Assembly: GCA_963783575.1 (NCBI GenBank)
Contig: CAWAOD010000013.1
Location: forward strand, 1-64,000
DNA length: 64,000 nt
Reading direction: 5' to 3'
Source: an uncultured Spirochaetota bacterium
GTDB taxonomy: Bacteria > Spirochaetota > Brevinematia > Brevinematales > JAOACQ01
Shown here: piece by piece, positions 53,576-64,000 of the stretch
Numbering within the stretch: the stretch's first letter is position 1
Layout of the letters: the number at the start of each line of letters is the position of its first letter
Made by a program: the position numbers and the translations under genes
The notes under the pieces: generated by a model
The model's input: the letters and a program-made list of their open reading frames with translations, nothing else
What the model was told of the DNA's origin: nothing
Databases searched by the model: none

Positions 53576-55397
53576 ATGGACAACAAATATATTTTAGGAA
53601 TATCCGCATTTTATCATGATTCTGCCGCATGTATCATAAAAAATGGCAGCATTATCGCCGCCGCGCAGGAAGAGCGGTTTACAAGGAAAAAAGGTGACGC
53701 GGATTTTCCCATTAATGCCATTTATTATTGCTTAAAAGCTGCTGAAATCAGTATTAGTGATCTAAGCGAAATTGTTTTTTATGACAAGCCGATACTTAAA
53801 TTCGACAGAATCCTTGCTTCATATATTCATAATGCGCCAAAAGGTGTGGAATCATTTGTCCAGGCTGTTCCATTATGGTTGAAAAGCAAGCTCTGGGTTG
53901 AAGATACTATAAAAAAAGAACTTAATTTTAAAAATGATATTCTATTCACTGAACACCATCAGGCCCATGCGGCCAGCGCTTTTTTTCCATCCCCTTTTGA
54001 TAAAGCGGCAATAATCACTATTGACGGAGTGGGAGAATGGTCTACAACTACCATCGGAACAGGAATCGGCAGTAAGATATCGCTTTTTAAAAAAATCGAT
54101 TTCCCGCATTCCCTGGGACTGCTTTATTCGGCTTTTACATATTACTGCGGCTTCCGTGTAAATTCCGGAGAATACAAACTTATGGGTCTGGCTCCTTATG
54201 GAAAGCCGGTATATCTTGATATCATTAAAAAAGAGATAATTACAATCAATTCTGACGGTTCTTATGTCTTAAACGAAAACTATTTCAACTATATTTCCGG
54301 CTTAAAAATGATAAACAGCCGGTTTGAAAAGCTTTTCGGGCATAAATCGCTCAAACCGGATCAAAAGCCCGGCCAGTTTTATATGGATATTGCGGCTTCC
54401 ATACAGAAGCTTTTTGATGAAATACTTGTCAGGATAGCAGTCGAGGCTAAAAGACTTACCGGGCTGGAAAACCTCTGCATAGCCGGCGGCGTCGGGTTGA
54501 ACTGCGTTTCAAACAGCGCCATCCTTAAAGAGTCTGGCTTTTCCGGCATATGGGTACAGCCTGCCGCGGGAGACGCCGGAGGAGACTCTTGGCGCATCTC
54601 TTTACGTATATTATCAATACTTAAATAATGAAAGAGTAACGGACGGTAAAACCGATTTTATGGAGGGGGCTTATTTAGGTCCTTCATTTGATAATAATGA
54701 AATCAAGGACGCACTGGACAGGCTGGGAGCGGTTTATCATAATACTCCAGCGGATGAGCTTTTAAAAATAATAGCCGCAGCCATATCATCAGAAAAGGTA
54801 ATCGGATGGTTTCAGGGGAGAATGGAGTTCGGGCCGAGGGCGCTCGGGAATCGTTCGATTTTAGGTGACGCCAGGTCTGAAAAAATGCAGTCAATGATGA
54901 ACCTTAAAATCAAGTTTCGCGAATCCTTCAGGCCGTTCGCTCCATCCGTTATGGAAGAAAAATCAACTGAATATTTTGATATCGACAGGCCTTCGCCTTA
55001 TATGCTTCTGACTGCACAGGTTAAAAGCGGCAAACTTGTAAAAGCAGATACCGATGGCAAAACCGGTATGGAATTACTTAAATTAAAACGGTCGGTAGTC
55101 CCCGCGATAACTCATGTTGATAATTCCGCGAGGCTGCAGACCGTTTCGGAAAAAACCAATCCATTGTTTTATAAATTGCTGAAAGAGTTTGAAAGTAAAA
55201 CAGGTTGTCCGCTTATCATAAATACATCGTTCAATGTACGCGGCGAACCGATCATCTGCAACCCTGTTGACGCATATAACTGCTTTATGGGAACCGGGAT
55301 AGATCTTCTGGCGATTGGTGACTTCATATTATATAAAGAAGAACAACCAAAAAATCCGGAGTTGAAGAAATGGAAAAAAAGCCTGATAAAGGATTGA
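53576..55397 (+). CDS. NodU/CmcH-family carbamoyltransferase, split by a 1-nt frameshift
   Basis: GISAFYHDSAA, EHHQAHAAS, GEYKLMGLA, GGVGLN, AGDAGG(AL G) restored by deleting one base near 54585, EFGPRALG.RS, NTSFN. Confidence 0.92.
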
Positions 55398-57762: not shown

Positions 57763-59079
57763 ATGCTATCGAAAAATAAAAACTTTGAGCTTGTTTCTCC
57801 GGCCGGGAGTTTTGAAAAAATGCAATTCGCGTTTGAATACGGAGCAGACGCGGTATATCTTGGGGCAAAATCCTTTTCACTCCGTGAAGGAGCGGCGAAT
57901 TTTACTCTTGAAGAATTAACCGGAGCGGTTGAAACCGCCCATTTAAAAAATAAAAAAGTTTTCATTGCTCTGAATATTTTTTTTCATAACAGGCATTTAG
58001 AGGCCTTGAAGAATTTTATGAAAGAAATTAAAGACATACCCGCGGACGGCCTGATCATTTCCGACATAGGGGCAATTTCTTACATCAGGGAAAAGTATCC
58101 TCATTTCCCTGTCCATGTAAGTACGCAGGCAAATACGACAAACAGCTTTAGTGTAAAATTTTATGAAAAGCTCGGCGTGAAGAGGGTCATTCTGGCAAGG
58201 GAACTCTCGATCGATGAAATCAAGGAAATCAGGGATTCAATATCGCTTGAGCTTGAAACATTCGTTCATGGTGCAATGTGTATAGCTTACTCCGGAAGGT
58301 GCCTGCTTTCAAATTACTTTACAAATTCATCTTTATACAGGAAGGGTGAGAAAATCGGCAGTATGAAGAAACTGAAAACAAGGGACGCGAATCTGGGCGA
58401 TTGCTCCCAGAGCTGCCGCTGGGACTATTATCTTGTAGAATCCACAAGGATGAATGATTTTATACCTGTTGAGGAAAATGAGAACGGAACATCTATTCTT
58501 AGTTCCAAAGATCTCAATCTTTCATCCCATATGAAAGAATTGATGGAAGCCGGTATAGACGCCTTTAAAATAGAAGGCCGGATGAAGAGTATTTATTATG
58601 TCTCAAATGTAACAAGGGTTTACAGAAACATTATTGATAAAATTAAAACCGGCAAAGAGATTGACACTTTTGATGCCACGGAACTTGATAAAGTCAAGGA
58701 ACTTGATAAAGTCAAGGAACTTGATAAAGTGAGCCACAGGGAATACACAACAGGATTTTATTTCGGTGAGAATACGGCGCTGAATTCAACAAAAACCAGC
58801 AGGTACATCAGGGATTATAACTTTCTGGGTTATGTAAAAGAAATTATAATGCCGGGCCGTGCACTTGTTCGAGCAATGAATCAAATACTTCCGGGAAAAC
58901 CCCTTGAAATAATTACGCCCGATTACCGTGATTTTATCATGAATAAATACAGCCTGATTCATGAAAATGATAAGGTTGATAAAATTCAGCCGAATGAAGA
59001 ATTTATTCTTGAATGGAATGATAAGACTATTTTAAAGAAATACGATATTTTAAGAAGGAAATGCGAATCAGCCTGTTAG
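57763..59079 (+). CDS. U32-family peptidase-like protein (TrhP/RlhA-type hydroxylase)
   Basis: ELVSPAG, GADAVY, HVSTQAN, LARE, VHGAMC.AYSGRC, CSQSCR, FKIEGRMKS. Confidence 0.9.
   Translation: MLSKNKNFELVSPAGSFEKMQFAFEYGADAVYLGAKSFSLREGAANFTLEELTGAVETAHLKNKKVFIALNIFFHNRHLEALKNFMKEIKDIPADGLIISDIGAISYIREKYPHFPVHVSTQANTTNSFSVKFYEKLGVKRVILARELSIDEIKEIRDSISLELETFVHGAMCIAYSGRCLLSNYFTNSSLYRKGEKIGSMKKLKTRDANLGDCSQSCRWDYYLVESTRMNDFIPVEENENGTSILSSKDLNLSSHMKELMEAGIDAFKIEGRMKSIYYVSNVTRVYRNIIDKIKTGKEIDTFDATELDKVKELDKVKELDKVSHREYTTGFYFGENTALNSTKTSRYIRDYNFLGYVKEIIMPGRALVRAMNQILPGKPLEIITPDYRDFIMNKYSLIHENDKVDKIQPNEEFILEWNDKTILKKYDILRRKCESAC
58680..58730 (+). repeat. 18-bp in-frame tandem repeat (ELDKVK x2.8)
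   Basis: GGAACTTGATAAAGTCAA x2 plus GGAACTTGATAAAGT. Confidence 0.9.
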
Positions 59080-59135: not shown

Positions 59136-59268
59136 GAATTCTTGCATAAATTAAACCAGAATTCTAAAATGAAACAATGTCATAAAGAATACAATGTTGT
59201 CATTCTTCGTCCATTCGGCATCCCCGGCTGGAATGATTTTATTAATTGACCGGTTTAAGGAAGAAAAT

Positions 59269-61656
59269 ATGGATCAAAAAAAATTCCAGAATGAGAATAA
59301 ACTTCTGGGCATACTTTCACATCAGCTCAAATCACCGATAAATTCCATTGAAAGCATTCTGAAAGTTATAGTTGACGGATTTACCGGTGAAATCGATGAA
59401 AAAACCCTGTATTTCATTCAGAAGGCAATAAACAAGACCACTGATGCCAGAAATATTATCACAGATATGATAAATTATGAAAAATTATCAACAATGAATG
59501 AAATTATAATGGAAGAAATTGAAATAATAAATTTCATTCATTCGCTTTGCAGAAAATATTCTTTCCAGGCATCGGAAAAAAATATCCTGATCTCAACAGG
59601 CATACCTGAAAATATTAATATATATATTCAGGCTGAACCGGTAAGCCTCGGGATAGCTTTCGGCAACCTTATCGATAACGCCATCAAATATACGCCGAAC
59701 AATGGTAAAATAACAATTTCCATACATATTAACCAGGAAGCAAAAAAATGCCTGGTTATGATCTCCGACTCAGGCTATGGGATTAATCAGGAAGACATAC
59801 CAAAAATATTTGACCCTTTTTTCAGATCGCCCGGGCAAAAGTCGGCTATATCCGGAACCGGTTTGGGTTTGTCTATCGTTAAAAAGGTTATTGAAAAGCA
59901 TAATTTTGAGATAACAGTCGAATCAAGGGAAAATGCAGGGACATCATTTACGGTTACAATCCCCGGAATTAAAATCAAGCAGTATAAAAACCACAAAGCC
60001 AGGGACGGTAAAAAGATTGTCATAATCGGCGGAGTAACGGCAGGGCCTAAAGCTGCGGCAAGATTGAGGCGCCTGGACGAGAGCCTGGACATAACCATTA
60101 TTGAAAAAAGCGAATTTCTATCCTATGCCGGCTGCGGATTACCAGCCTTTATCAGCGGTAAAGTAAACTCGCCGAAGGAACTTATGTCGACATCAGATAA
60201 TACATTGAGGGACGTTAATTTTTTCGAATCGATAAAGAACATAAAGGTATTGAATCAGACAGAAGCGATTGAAATAAACAGGGAAAAGAAAACCGTCGGC
60301 ATTAAAGATTTAGTCAATCAGGTTAAGCATGAAGTCGATTACGATATTCTCATACTGGCTACAGGATCATCATGTTTATATCCTGATATACCGGGAATAA
60401 GGCAGGAAGGGATTTATTCCCTGCATAGCATTGAAGAAGCAAAAAAAATAAAAGAGGAACTGCATCAAAAGCGGGCGATGGATATCATAATAATCGGGGG
60501 CGGATTAATAGGCATTGAAGTTGCAGAATCCATTATGCTTACCGGGGCAAGGGTGACAATACTTGAAAAAAGCGATCAGATACTGAGAATTTTCGATAAG
60601 GAAATATCAAAAAAAATCGAACATGAACTCAACAAAAAGGGCATCAAGGTTTACTTAAGTACATTAATAAAAGAAATCCAAAAAACTGAAAAAAATTTTA
60701 TTATAAAAACTGAAGAAAATGATTTTGTCGCAGATATGATAATCCTTGCCTCGGGGGTCAAGCCGAACACGGCCCTAGCTGAAAAATCAGGTCTGGAGCT
60801 GGGACAGTTCGGCGGCCTGAAGATTAATGAGTATTTTCAGACATCCGATAAGAATATCTACGCAATCGGTGACTGCATAGAAAGCTGCAATGTTATATCC
60901 GGAAAACCTATTCTTTGGCCGCTCGGATCGGTATCGACAAAAATGGGAAGGATCGTTGCGGATAATATTTGCGGTAAAAAGGTTAAATTTAAGGGCCATG
61001 CCGCCACAGCGATGTTTAAGCTGTTTGATTTTAATATCGCAAGGACCGGCTTGAGTCTCCAGGATGCTGTGAACAGCGGCTATGATGTCGAATCCATTGT
61101 TGTCAGCGGGCTCGATTGTTCGCATTACTGCGGCGAGGCTCAGGAAATCACATTAAAGCTGCTTGTTGACAGAAAAACAGAAGCGATACTCGGCGCCCAG
61201 GGATATGGAAGGGGCAATATAGTTGAAAGAATTGAAATGCTTGCTTTTGCCGTGACACAGGGCTTGAAATTAAACGATGTTTACCAGGTTGACCTCGGTT
61301 ATTATCCATATTATAACAACCCGATAGATCTGATTCAAACGGCTTGCATAGCTCTTAAAAATAAAATAGACGGCCTGTACAGAACCATAACCTGTGAAAC
61401 GGTTGAAGCTGGCAGGAACGGCTATAAATTCATTGACGTTAGCCCGGCTTCGGAAAACCACATACTTTATATGTCGAACAGCATCAACATACCGCTTGAA
61501 AATATCCGCGAGGAAAAAATACCATATAAGTGTGAAGATCAGATCGTCCTATTCAGCAGAACATCAGCACGGGCTTATGAGGCTTACCGTTATCTTGTAT
61601 CAAAGGGATTTCAAAATATTTTCGTCCTCGAGGGCGGGTATTTGTTTTATAAATAA
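59269..61656 (+). CDS. histidine kinase (HisKA-HATPase) fused to CoA-disulfide reductase-like flavoprotein and rhodanese domain
   Basis: SHQLKSP H-box, NLIDNAIKY, DSGYGI, IFDPFF, GTGLGL; then IIGGVTAG..SYAGCGLP, GGGLIG.E, IYAIGDC; C-terminal LEGG rhodanese; single ORF. Confidence 0.88.
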   Translation: MDQKKFQNENKLLGILSHQLKSPINSIESILKVIVDGFTGEIDEKTLYFIQKAINKTTDARNIITDMINYEKLSTMNEIIMEEIEIINFIHSLCRKYSFQASEKNILISTGIPENINIYIQAEPVSLGIAFGNLIDNAIKYTPNNGKITISIHINQEAKKCLVMISDSGYGINQEDIPKIFDPFFRSPGQKSAISGTGLGLSIVKKVIEKHNFEITVESRENAGTSFTVTIPGIKIKQYKNHKARDGKKIVIIGGVTAGPKAAARLRRLDESLDITIIEKSEFLSYAGCGLPAFISGKVNSPKELMSTSDNTLRDVNFFESIKNIKVLNQTEAIEINREKKTVGIKDLVNQVKHEVDYDILILATGSSCLYPDIPGIRQEGIYSLHSIEEAKKIKEELHQKRAMDIIIIGGGLIGIEVAESIMLTGARVTILEKSDQILRIFDKEISKKIEHELNKKGIKVYLSTLIKEIQKTEKNFIIKTEENDFVADMIILASGVKPNTALAEKSGLELGQFGGLKINEYFQTSDKNIYAIGDCIESCNVISGKPILWPLGSVSTKMGRIVADNICGKKVKFKGHAATAMFKLFDFNIARTGLSLQDAVNSGYDVESIVVSGLDCSHYCGEAQEITLKLLVDRKTEAILGAQGYGRGNIVERIEMLAFAVTQGLKLNDVYQVDLGYYPYYNNPIDLIQTACIALKNKIDGLYRTITCETVEAGRNGYKFIDVSPASENHILYMSNSINIPLENIREEKIPYKCEDQIVLFSRTSARAYEAYRYLVSKGFQNIFVLEGGYLFYK

Positions 61657-61771: not shown

Positions 61772-62401
61772 CTACTTACCGCTTTTCAGAAGAAGATTTG
61801 CCGCACTTGCAAGCCTTTGATTAAAATCCGGACTGAACATATGCCTTTTGGACATAGTTATCAAATACGAAGCCGAAGACTTAGAATTATGCTTTAATAT
61901 GGCAATAAAAAGAGTTTCTGCTATGGTTTCGTCTGTAATCTGGGTTGTTAAATTGTTCAAAGCCGTTAATCCTTCAGGCGATGGATGGATTTCTCCGAGT
62001 GCCTGTATCAGCGCTTTTTGACCTTCTTTATCGGTAATATCTTTTAAGTAACTGGCAATCTCTATCGCGTCCTGATTGTTGCCGATTTGCCCCATAGTCC
62101 ATACAGATATAAGAAAGATATCTTTCAGTTGATTTATCCTTTTTTTCCCCTGATTGGCGATCGGATTGGACTGCGCCATTAAGCCGAAGATTTCTTGCCT
62201 GGCGTTTGTAAGCTTTAATTCTCCGATTCTTTTGATTCCTCCGTAAACCATATCCAAATCATCGGATATAAAAGACTCCACTATCTGGTCATAATTTGAG
62301 GCATCCATTGACTTAAAATATTCATCATAGGTAGTTATTTTAGAATATGAAGCTGTAACGGCAAAAACCATTATTACCAGGACAGTTATCAAATATTTCA
62401 C
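61772..62401 (-). CDS. secreted HEAT-repeat-like protein
   Basis: signal peptide; IKRIGEL, WTMGQIG, IQALGEI repeats. Confidence 0.65.
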   Translation of the reverse strand: MKYLITVLVIMVFAVTASYSKITTYDEYFKSMDASNYDQIVESFISDDLDMVYGGIKRIGELKLTNARQEIFGLMAQSNPIANQGKKRINQLKDIFLISVWTMGQIGNNQDAIEIASYLKDITDKEGQKALIQALGEIHPSPEGLTALNNLTTQITDETIAETLFIAILKHNSKSSASYLITMSKRHMFSPDFNQRLASAANLLLKSGK

Positions 62402-62451: not shown

Positions 62452-62832
62452 CTAATCGATTAAATTCTCAACCCTTTCTATAAATTGCTTGGGCTGAATG
62501 GGTTTGATAACATACTCATCCACTGGAAGCCAGTCCTCATCGCCCGCGGTCGATTTGAAATCTATATTGGTTTCATTATCCACATTCGTGAGCATAAGTA
62601 TTTTTATTTTTTCAAATTTTGCGTTATTTTTCAGTTCCCTAGCCATCTCGAACCCGGCGTTGCTGTTTTCCATCATTACATCCAGTATGACAAGATCGGG
62701 TATAAATTTTTCCAGTACCTGAAAACCTTCTTTCCTGGAACCGGCTTCTTTAATATCATATTTGCCGGAAAATATCACGGTCAATAACTCCCTCTGGTCC
62801 GGATCGTCATCTATGATTAATATTTTTTTCAT
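62452..62832 (-). CDS. single-domain response regulator
   Basis: ILIIDDD, PDLVILDVMM, LMLT, KP. Confidence 0.92.
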   Translation of the reverse strand: MKKILIIDDDPDQRELLTVIFSGKYDIKEAGSRKEGFQVLEKFIPDLVILDVMMENSNAGFEMARELKNNAKFEKIKILMLTNVDNETNIDFKSTAGDEDWLPVDEYVIKPIQPKQFIERVENLID

Positions 62833-63323: not shown

Positions 63324-64000
63324 ATGAAAGAAGCAATGACCATATGTTCGTTTTGCGGCTGCGGATGCAGCATGTATATGGCAAGCGAAGACAATTCCAT
63401 CACTAAAATCATTCCGGCATTGTCAAATCCTGTCAACCGCGGAAGCCTCTGCATAAAAGGCTGGCATATAAGCGAAGCCTATATCAATCAAAATAGAATT
63501 ACAAAGCCTCTGATCAAAACTAACGGAGAATTCAAAGAAGCGGGTTATGATGAAGCATTGAATCTGATTGCCGATAAATTCTCTTTTTATAAGAAATCTC
63601 AGAATTCAATCGGGGTAATCGGCTCCGCTAAAACTACAAACGAAGAGAATTATCTATTAAACCGCCTTGCCCGTCAGGCATTGGAAACAAACTCAATCGA
63701 CAGCTCTTTCACTCTGCACTATCACTCTCTTTTGGAAAATATCAACGGATTAAATCTAACCATCGGCATGGAAGATATCGAAAACGCGGATTTTATCATC
63801 GTTATCGGTTCGAACCTTCATACCGAAGCGCCTCAGGTTATAAAAAAAGTTTTGAAGGCTTCCGATAAAGGCGCGAAAATCGCGGTGATAGGTTTTCTTT
63901 CAGTTCCTCTTGCGGAAGTATCCGATTACTCGATCCCGATTAATCCGGCTGAGATATCTCAATTCCTGCAGAACTTTAAGGATATATTAAATTCCCCCGG
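63324..64000 (+). CDS. FdhF-like molybdopterin oxidoreductase family protein (partial, runs off window; absent from ORF track)
   Basis: TICSFCGCGC..NRGSLCIKG 4Fe-4S motif, RITKPL, SAKTTNEENY, IENADFIIVIGSN. Confidence 0.88.
   Translation, partial: MKEAMTICSFCGCGCSMYMASEDNSITKIIPALSNPVNRGSLCIKGWHISEAYINQNRITKPLIKTNGEFKEAGYDEALNLIADKFSFYKKSQNSIGVIGSAKTTNEENYLLNRLARQALETNSIDSSFTLHYHSLLENINGLNLTIGMEDIENADFIIVIGSNLHTEAPQVIKKVLKASDKGAKIAVIGFLSVPLAEVSDYSIPINPAEISQFLQNFKDILNSP

Follow-up and report, generated by a model that had tools for sequence, protein, structure and literature searches.

Background

Redox input to signalling, in some cases tied to hydrogenases, is known from NifL, HupUV-HupT/HoxBC-HoxJ and the group C sensory [FeFe]-hydrogenases, which rely on PAS/GAF cofactors, on Cys switches or on hydrogenase modules. 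Apoptosis-inducing factor (AIF) has been described as a flavoprotein in which a reduced FAD:NAD+ state that is long-lived, together with a conformational change, serves to sense NADH/NAD+ (PMC13217802). Among Npsr-type flavoenzymes, AfNpsr acts as a reductase of per- and polysulfides and as an NADH oxidase, without CoA-disulfide activity (PMC7969121), and turnover by EfCoAPR needs its rhodanese Cys (PMC9405070).

For HisKA kinases, the acidic residue following the phospho-His (position H+1) has been described as the general base for autophosphorylation, pairing with the first Asn of the N box (PMC3904827; PMC7005713). The CrdS substitution E372Q left phosphatase activity full and kinase activity absent, NtrB E140Q was described as behaving in the same manner, and CrdS E372D was also kinase-negative (PMC3510030). 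Because of this last result, the CrdS mutants may overstate the H+1 rule. In PhoQ, an active kinase, H+1 is Ser. A natural phosphatase with neither the H+1 acid nor the N-box Asn has been reported in DrBphP (PMC8292422). No description of a HisKA-flavoenzyme fusion was found in the literature searched (subscription journals and supplements lay outside the search) or, by term search, in bioRxiv 10.64898/2026.02.27.708494, and the terms 'NADH', 'oxidoreductase' and 'rhodanese' are absent from the main text of a review of redox kinases (PMC8534201).

Domain architecture of the fused gene

In the window analysed here (a 64,000-nucleotide stretch of a contig whose host was identified as a spirochaete by FlaA), a stop-free open reading frame on the plus strand (59269..61656) was translated into a protein of 795 amino acids, consisting of a HisKA core, an Npsr-type flavoenzyme and a rhodanese-like tail. 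The architecture proposed in the sequence-only reading was recovered in this single frame by Pfam, as HisKA (residues 10-73), HATPase_c (125-232), Pyr_redox_2 (249-544), Pyr_redox_dim (583-683) and Rhodanese (717-791); the HisKA match (23.0 bits) fell below its gathering cut-off of 26.9 bits, and HATPase_c lay above its own.

The DHp (HisKA) domain (59296..59487, plus strand, as are all parts of the gene) carries His18 (59320-59322), Gln19 at H+1 (59323-59325) and Ser22 at H+4. In the ATP-binding CA (HATPase_c) domain (59641..59964), the N box (N133, N137), G1 box (D167, G169, G171), F box and G2 box are intact, as previously claimed, and invariant in 120/120 members of set 1 (the window protein and 119 homologs, the best 120 of 3390 matches). 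A linker (59965..60012), variable in sequence (mean conservation 0.36) and constrained in length (13-17 residues; 15 in 107/120 of set 1, best 120 of 3390), leads into the Npsr/CoADR-type FAD, NADH and dimerisation domains (60013..61368), with Cys289 (60133-60135), a lid loop (308-314) and E433; these are followed by the rhodanese-like domain (61417..61641), in which Ser763 (61555-61557) replaces the sulfur-carrying Cys. The SYAGC cysteine (SYAGC289G) and both GxGxxG-type dinucleotide motifs, said to be kept, were found, and the Ser of FSRTSAR, read as standing in place of the rhodanese Cys, is S763, which aligns with that Cys in 6PFZ and 3ICR.

The view that the protein starts near the H box, with no N-terminal sensor or transmembrane segment, also held. 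His18 lies 17 residues after the ATG at 59269 (a start at the alternative in-frame ATG, at 59194, would lengthen the protein by 25 amino acids), and the first 80 residues hold no hydrophobic segment (maximum 19-residue hydropathy 0.87). In the homologs, 12-42 residues precede the phospho-His (set 1, best 120 of 3390), hydropathy above 1.6 was reached by 1/119 N-termini (among the matches listed), and no input domain other than the flavoenzyme was found in any fusion homolog listed. By sequence, the closest structural relatives were 6PFZ (A. fulgidus Npsr; over 250-794, E 1e-111) and HK853/VicK (over 2-233). An AlphaFold model of the fusion made with a 120-row alignment (mean pLDDT 88; low pLDDT in linker residues 240-244) matched the fold of 6PFZ including the rhodanese tail (TM 0.96, rmsd 1.9 Å, 36% identity).

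Distribution of the fusion

The fusion is a real and widespread gene architecture. All 119 homologs listed in set 1 (best 120 of 3390 matches) were full-length fusions, with 47-55% identity and 94-100% query coverage. A sister clade (set 2) consists of 120 of 405 matches to a Planctomycetota fusion query and has no overlap with set 1; Anaerobaca lacustris (P0272), a named species, is among its members. A scan of named genomes (14/64 parts; best 80 of 584 loci kept) yielded 41 fused loci and 39 'unfused' controls, so that at least 41 fused loci are present in named genomes of Spirochaetota, Fibrobacterota, Planctomycetota, Verrucomicrobiota, Lentisphaerota, Myxococcota and others. Database names for members of the family are 'FAD-dependent oxidoreductase' or 'histidine kinase'. 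The fusion was found in 0/40 relatives of the host, and fused forms of greater length (1393-3975 aa) did not appear at E<=1e-40, the latter being weak evidence. In a tree of the Npsr part (quick mode), fused and unfused enzymes interleaved, with six changes, making both a single fusion with losses and multiple fusions possible; the window-protein clade sat on a long stem (1.38).

That an assembly join or chance read-through had linked two separate genes, one of the conditions under which the sequence-only reading would fall, retains almost no probability. Indel-type errors or pseudogenes are suggested by split genes elsewhere in the assembly, but the 119 independent homologs refute a join by covering 94-100% of the query with a constrained linker. 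Across independent datasets, 239 further clustered proteins (among the matches listed) combine HATPase_c and Pyr_redox_2 across a constrained linker, and the 41 fused loci of named genomes (best 80 of 584 loci) speak in the same direction.

The split genes are two that are presumably carbamoyltransferase-like (window 53576-55397) and aspartate ammonia-lyase-like (C13:76548-77924), and an acetate kinase (C13:162325-163495). A U32 peptidase/TrhP-like gene contains a perfect in-frame 18-bp tandem repeat (58680-58730; 2.8 copies, encoding a repeated hexapeptide), which may be a true duplication or an assembly slip. One fusion homolog (L046:9149-11568) is split into two frames inside the flavoenzyme part.

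The flavoenzyme and rhodanese-like parts

The flavoprotein had been called CoADR/Npsr-like. The Npsr type was confirmed, with 6PFZ as best relative, whereas 'CoADR' proved imprecise, since the closest enzyme is of the A. fulgidus Npsr type, reported without CoA-disulfide activity; the fusion also fell short of the NCBIfam CoA-disulfide reductase cut-offs (387 bits against 578.8 for TIGR03385, and 354 against 458 for PRK09564). FAD-proximal Cys289 was kept in 237/240 members (sets 1 and 2, among the matches listed). E433, aligned with AfNpsr E183, the residue that selects NADH, was kept in 240/240 of them, and the lid loop is the same as in A. fulgidus Npsr. The elements with which EfCoAPR holds CoA (helix 1, the last reductase helix and the rhodanese core helix) are conserved, and this suggests that the fusion may bind CoA.

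At the rhodanese Cys site, Ser763 was present in 120/120 of set 1 (best 120 of 3390), within a conserved loop motif (S-x-T-S-x-[RG]-A), and Cys in 36/36 aligned unfused relatives (best 80 of 584 loci). Set 2 (120 of 405; n=117 at this site) had Cys in 78, Gly in 20, Ser in 11, Ala in 6 and Asp in 2, and since the sister clade thus keeps the Cys in most members listed, its loss does not define the design. The host encodes a separate, ordinary Npsr (C11:182065-183822) with both Cys residues, including that of the rhodanese domain. From the residue states and this separate enzyme, we infer that a redox-reporting module is a better fit for the fused flavoenzyme than a housekeeping enzyme.

H box, autokinase and phosphatase residues

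The H box of the fusion reads HQLKSP, with Gln rather than Glu or Asp after the phospho-His. Among aligned members, Gln was found at H+1 in 111/119 of set 1 (best 120 of 3390) and 118/118 of set 2 (120 of 405), 229/237 in total, and in 40/41 fused loci of named genomes (best 80 of 584 loci). The remaining 8/237 (among the matches listed) have Glu and form one nested subclade of the window-protein clade (set 1); on the tree, Gln is ancestral for the family. Other HisKA domains, collected by an HK-core profile search of a 50%-cluster library, had Gln in 11/303 and Glu/Asp in 292/303; as a family census the same search was discarded, being swamped by two-kinase proteins. An acidic H+1 was present in 23/26 HisKA domains parsed in the host genome, and Gln was also seen in the natural HisKA domain of L116.

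The phospho-His was kept in 118/119 and 118/118 aligned members of set 1 (best 120 of 3390) and set 2 (120 of 405), respectively, and the first N-box Asn (N133) in 120/120 and 0/120. The second N-box Asn, G1 (DxGxG), F and G2 (GxGxG) were invariant in 240/240 (both sets, among the matches listed). Measured against what a HisKA autokinase needs, the window protein has the phospho-His, N133 and the ATP site and lacks the acidic H+1. Its H+4 residue is Ser22, the canonical phosphatase residue being Thr or Asn; set 1 (best 120 of 3390) had Ser in 99/120, Thr in 5 and Ala in 13, so that a hydroxyl was kept in 104/119, and set 2 (120 of 405) had Ser in 84/120 and otherwise Gly, Ala or Glu. No paper testing Ser at H+4 in HisKA phosphatases was found in the literature searched, nor did usable precedents turn up for the H boxes of PhoQ and QseC.

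The sequence-only reading had the flavoenzyme regulating autokinase activity. A regulatory role is supported indirectly, by the lack of any other input domain, the separate Npsr, the retention of E433 and a co-travelling receiver (see below), but control of an autokinase is doubtful, as Gln at H+1 removes kinase and not phosphatase activity in the CrdS and NtrB mutants.

Five proteins (P0126, P0127, P0130, P0141 and P0190) have tandem HisKA-HATPase cores that differ at H+1 (Gln in the first core, Glu in the second), possibly a phosphatase/kinase pair in one chain.

A stand-alone receiver and paralogous kinases

A stand-alone receiver of 126 aa (62452..62832, minus strand; D8-D10, D51 and K110 kept) lies 0.8 kb downstream of the fusion, on the opposite strand. 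Between the two is a gene for a 209-aa protein with no Pfam match (61772..62401, minus strand), which is missing at the corresponding place in loci L021 and L037, where receiver homologs (54% and 59% identical to the window receiver, respectively) are directly convergent with the fusion. The receiver subfamily occurred within the locus in 10/41 fused vs 0/39 control loci (best 80 of 584 loci). Per genome (E<=1e-27), it was found in 37/40 fusion genomes vs 11/37 controls, the genomes not being independent and the controls being unfused at the scanned locus, with a fusion elsewhere in them possible. Two control loci were dropped from this comparison, one being a fusion cut by a contig end (L070) and one starting at a contig end (L056). 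With the members used for profile building removed, the count was 27/30 fusion genomes, and in the 40 fusion-less relatives of the host it was 0/40 (both E<=1e-27). Judged by this co-occurrence, the receiver is likely the cognate partner of the fusion.

The fused HisKA cores formed one clade (SH-aLRT 80), lying in a 97-supported clade together with eight kinases whose genes neighbour either this receiver or the fusion. These eight have an acidic H+1 in 7/8 and Ala/Gly at H+4 in 6/8, a pattern complementary to that of the fused cores, which suggests a split of paralogs into putative kinase-only and phosphatase-only proteins. A membrane kinase of the partner type (E<=1e-20) was found in 11/40 fusion genomes and 3/37 controls. 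None was found in the host genome (assembly 89.85% complete), where the fusion is the sole member of the lineage found; the host has an acetate kinase gene.

Three loci (L017:1130-2938, L019:8406-10690 and L023:4709-6247) hold a recurring cassette that encodes a helical protein of ~150 aa matching no Pfam family, the same receiver and a membrane HisKA kinase, the kinase having an unclassified membrane domain of ~210 aa and occurring in up to five copies per spirochaete genome. Another kinase beside the receiver (L123:1859-3376) has an N-terminal part which we take to resemble a group C [FeFe]-hydrogenase-type sensor.

Hydrogenase context

Divergent from the receiver, an FdhA-like gene starts within the window (63324..64000, plus strand) as the first gene of an operon continuing beyond it (C13:63324-74973), which includes AsrA/AsrB-like genes and ends in a membrane-bound group-4-type [NiFe]-hydrogenase. 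The FdhA-like protein presumably lacks the usual catalytic Cys/Sec. In L050, and probably also in L048, the same AsrAB and hydrogenase module comes after the fusion. The operon is a candidate target or context. Hydrogenase genes were located within 1.5 kb of the receiver in 12/30 best loci vs 0/74 receiver matches in the host genome; other neighbours among the 30 best receiver loci were AsrAB-like genes (2) and a membrane kinase (7).

Around the fusion itself, hydrogenase or hyp genes were found in 8/41 fused vs 3/39 control loci, a difference that was not significant (p=0.19) and for which the markers had been drawn from the fused loci. Pfam was applied to 265 neighbouring ORFs, where ~320 had been called inside 5 kb and a few lay further out. 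Among the neighbours were Hox operons (L038, L052, L094, L095), group 4 operons (L018, L050), Rex (L038, L048) and Nqr (L019), and in L041 the insertion lies between hypA and hypB; in most loci, the neighbours were unrelated. A scan for Rex-like operators gave 24 matches vs 24.6 expected by chance and none upstream of the fusion, and a promoter/terminator scan was near chance level.

Three group-4-like large-subunit loci (C13, C14, C18) and HypB were seen in the host genome, with no HypD match in the assembly (89.85% complete).

Proposed mechanism and alternatives

With no H+1 acid for self-phosphorylation, the fusion is likely a redox-controlled phosphatase for its partner receiver. Our preferred reading, held tentatively and at a little below an even chance, is that this soluble HisKA(Gln)-Npsr protein senses redox state through NADH, flavin and a Cys-CoA centre and gates phosphatase activity on the neighbouring receiver, itself tied to hydrogen metabolism. 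The protein would form a 2:2 dimer, both DHp and flavoenzyme dimerising, and each of the two CA domains would be tethered to a FAD domain by 15 residues. NADH would reduce FAD and the Cys289-CoA centre and, sulfur delivery by the rhodanese Cys being lost, the reduced state could persist and report NADH/NAD+ (or reoxidation by persulfide or O2). The redox state of the flavoenzyme would alter the dimer, pull the tethered CA domains and shift CA/DHp geometry, with receiver dephosphorylation via His18/Ser22 as the chief output. Phosphate for the receiver might come from acetyl phosphate or, in genomes that have them, from the paralogous kinases; the receiver, having no output domain, would affect hydrogenase expression, maturation or activity by protein contact. 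Against this reading stand Ser rather than Thr/Asn at H+4, the invariant N133 and ATP site of set 1, the Glu subclade, the failure to find a partner kinase in the host (assembly 89.85% complete) and the small share of fusion genomes with the membrane type (11/40), along with the CrdS E372D result, the Ser of PhoQ and the lack of significant hydrogenase enrichment around the fusion gene itself.

The protein might instead, in line with the sequence-only reading, be a bifunctional kinase, with the redox state of the flavoenzyme controlling both autophosphorylation of His18 and phosphotransfer to the receiver, and with Gln making for a slow, working kinase. Such a kinase would account for His18 in 236/237 aligned members (among the matches listed), the invariance of N133, N137, D167 and the G boxes in set 1, the nested subclade of eight with Glu at H+1 and the failure to find a second protein of this kinase lineage in the host genome, and natural Gln at H+1 has precedents in other HisKA domains (11/303; L116). 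We nevertheless consider it rather unlikely, given that the E-to-Q change kills kinase activity in CrdS and NtrB (as reported in PMC3510030), that the sister clade (120 of 405) is without both activating residues and that Gln is ancestral in the family. Signal flow could also be reversed. The flavoenzyme would then be the output, either reducing persulfides or polysulfides with NADH or oxidising NADH, and it would be switched when the kinase-like module binds nucleotide or the receiver. A sensor at a C-terminal position is unusual, conservation in the enzyme part matches or exceeds that in the HK part (0.64-0.76 vs 0.61-0.64), the sister clade has the rhodanese Cys in 78/117 (among the matches listed) and AfNpsr has reported NADH oxidase activity (PMC7969121); but the rhodanese Cys, reported as needed for EfCoAPR turnover (PMC9405070), is lost in 120/120 of set 1 (best 120 of 3390). 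Since E417 of the NADH motif, Glu in the window protein, is moreover Ser in 45/120 of set 1 (best 120 of 3390), and an intact ordinary Npsr is encoded elsewhere in the host, reversed flow appears improbable.

NifL and DivL are pseudokinase-type regulators and provide a model for a sequestering DHp. In the same way, the DHp of the fusion might bind and sequester the receiver or a paralogous kinase, depending on redox state and nucleotide, and be neither kinase nor phosphatase. The sister clade, with Gln at H+1, a variable H+4 (Ser, Gly, Ala, Glu), the first N-box Asn lost and ATP-binding residues invariant, would suit such a role, but His18, needless for a pure scaffold, is almost always kept and a hydroxyl is present at H+4 in 104/119 of set 1 (best 120 of 3390), leaving this alternative a small probability. 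A broader version of the phosphatase reading, to be regarded as possible though doubtful, is that a C-terminal flavoenzyme sensor on a dedicated phosphatase opposes paralogous kinase-only proteins on one receiver, as a widespread, undescribed NADH/NAD+-to-hydrogenase circuit in anaerobic Spirochaetota, Fibrobacterota, Planctomycetota, Verrucomicrobiota/Lentisphaerota and Myxococcota.

Were the phosphatase reading true, anaerobes would feed their NADH pool (or sulfane-sulfur load) straight into two-component signalling, by way of a metabolic enzyme put to new use on the C-terminal side of the catalytic core of a natural kinase-dead, phosphatase-type HisKA protein. Fermenting and sediment bacteria would thereby have a regulator of hydrogen metabolism, the H+1/H+4 rules could be tested on a natural family that includes a Gln-to-Glu subclade, and a soluble redox switch encoded by one gene would be accessible in a named species, Anaerobaca lacustris.

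Comparison with known systems

Judged from its residues, the fusion is probably a redox-sensing two-component-like protein that falls outside the HisKA rule at H+1 and the Npsr rule at the rhodanese Cys. It shares its fold, FAD-proximal Cys, lid loop, acidic NADH determinant and rhodanese tail with the A. fulgidus Npsr (6PFZ; as described in PMC7969121), the S. loihica Npsr, the CoADR-RHD 3ICR and EfCoAPR 8A56, and differs from these enzymes in the added N-terminal HisKA-HATPase core and in Ser for the rhodanese Cys. With HK853, VicK/WalK, CpxA and CrdS it has in common the DHp-CA core and all nucleotide boxes, but unlike them it has no membrane, HAMP, PAS or GAF input and no H+1 general base. 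DrBphP has been described (PMC8292422) as a natural HisKA protein with a non-acidic H+1 that is a signal-controlled, ATP-dependent phosphatase; the N-box Asn is lost in DrBphP and in the fusion sister clade and kept in the window-protein clade. DrBphP has an N-terminal light-driven sensor, His at H+1 and Glu at H+4, whereas the fusion has Gln, Ser and a C-terminal flavoenzyme. AIF offers a mechanistic analogy only, being eukaryotic and, as described in PMC13217802, without a kinase core or a Cys-CoA centre. Finally, MmoS, NreB, ArcB and SrrB resemble the fusion in bringing redox input, derived from cofactors or enzymes, to two-component signalling, but they do so, according to the review text (PMC8534201), with PAS/GAF cofactors or Cys switches, unlike the fusion.
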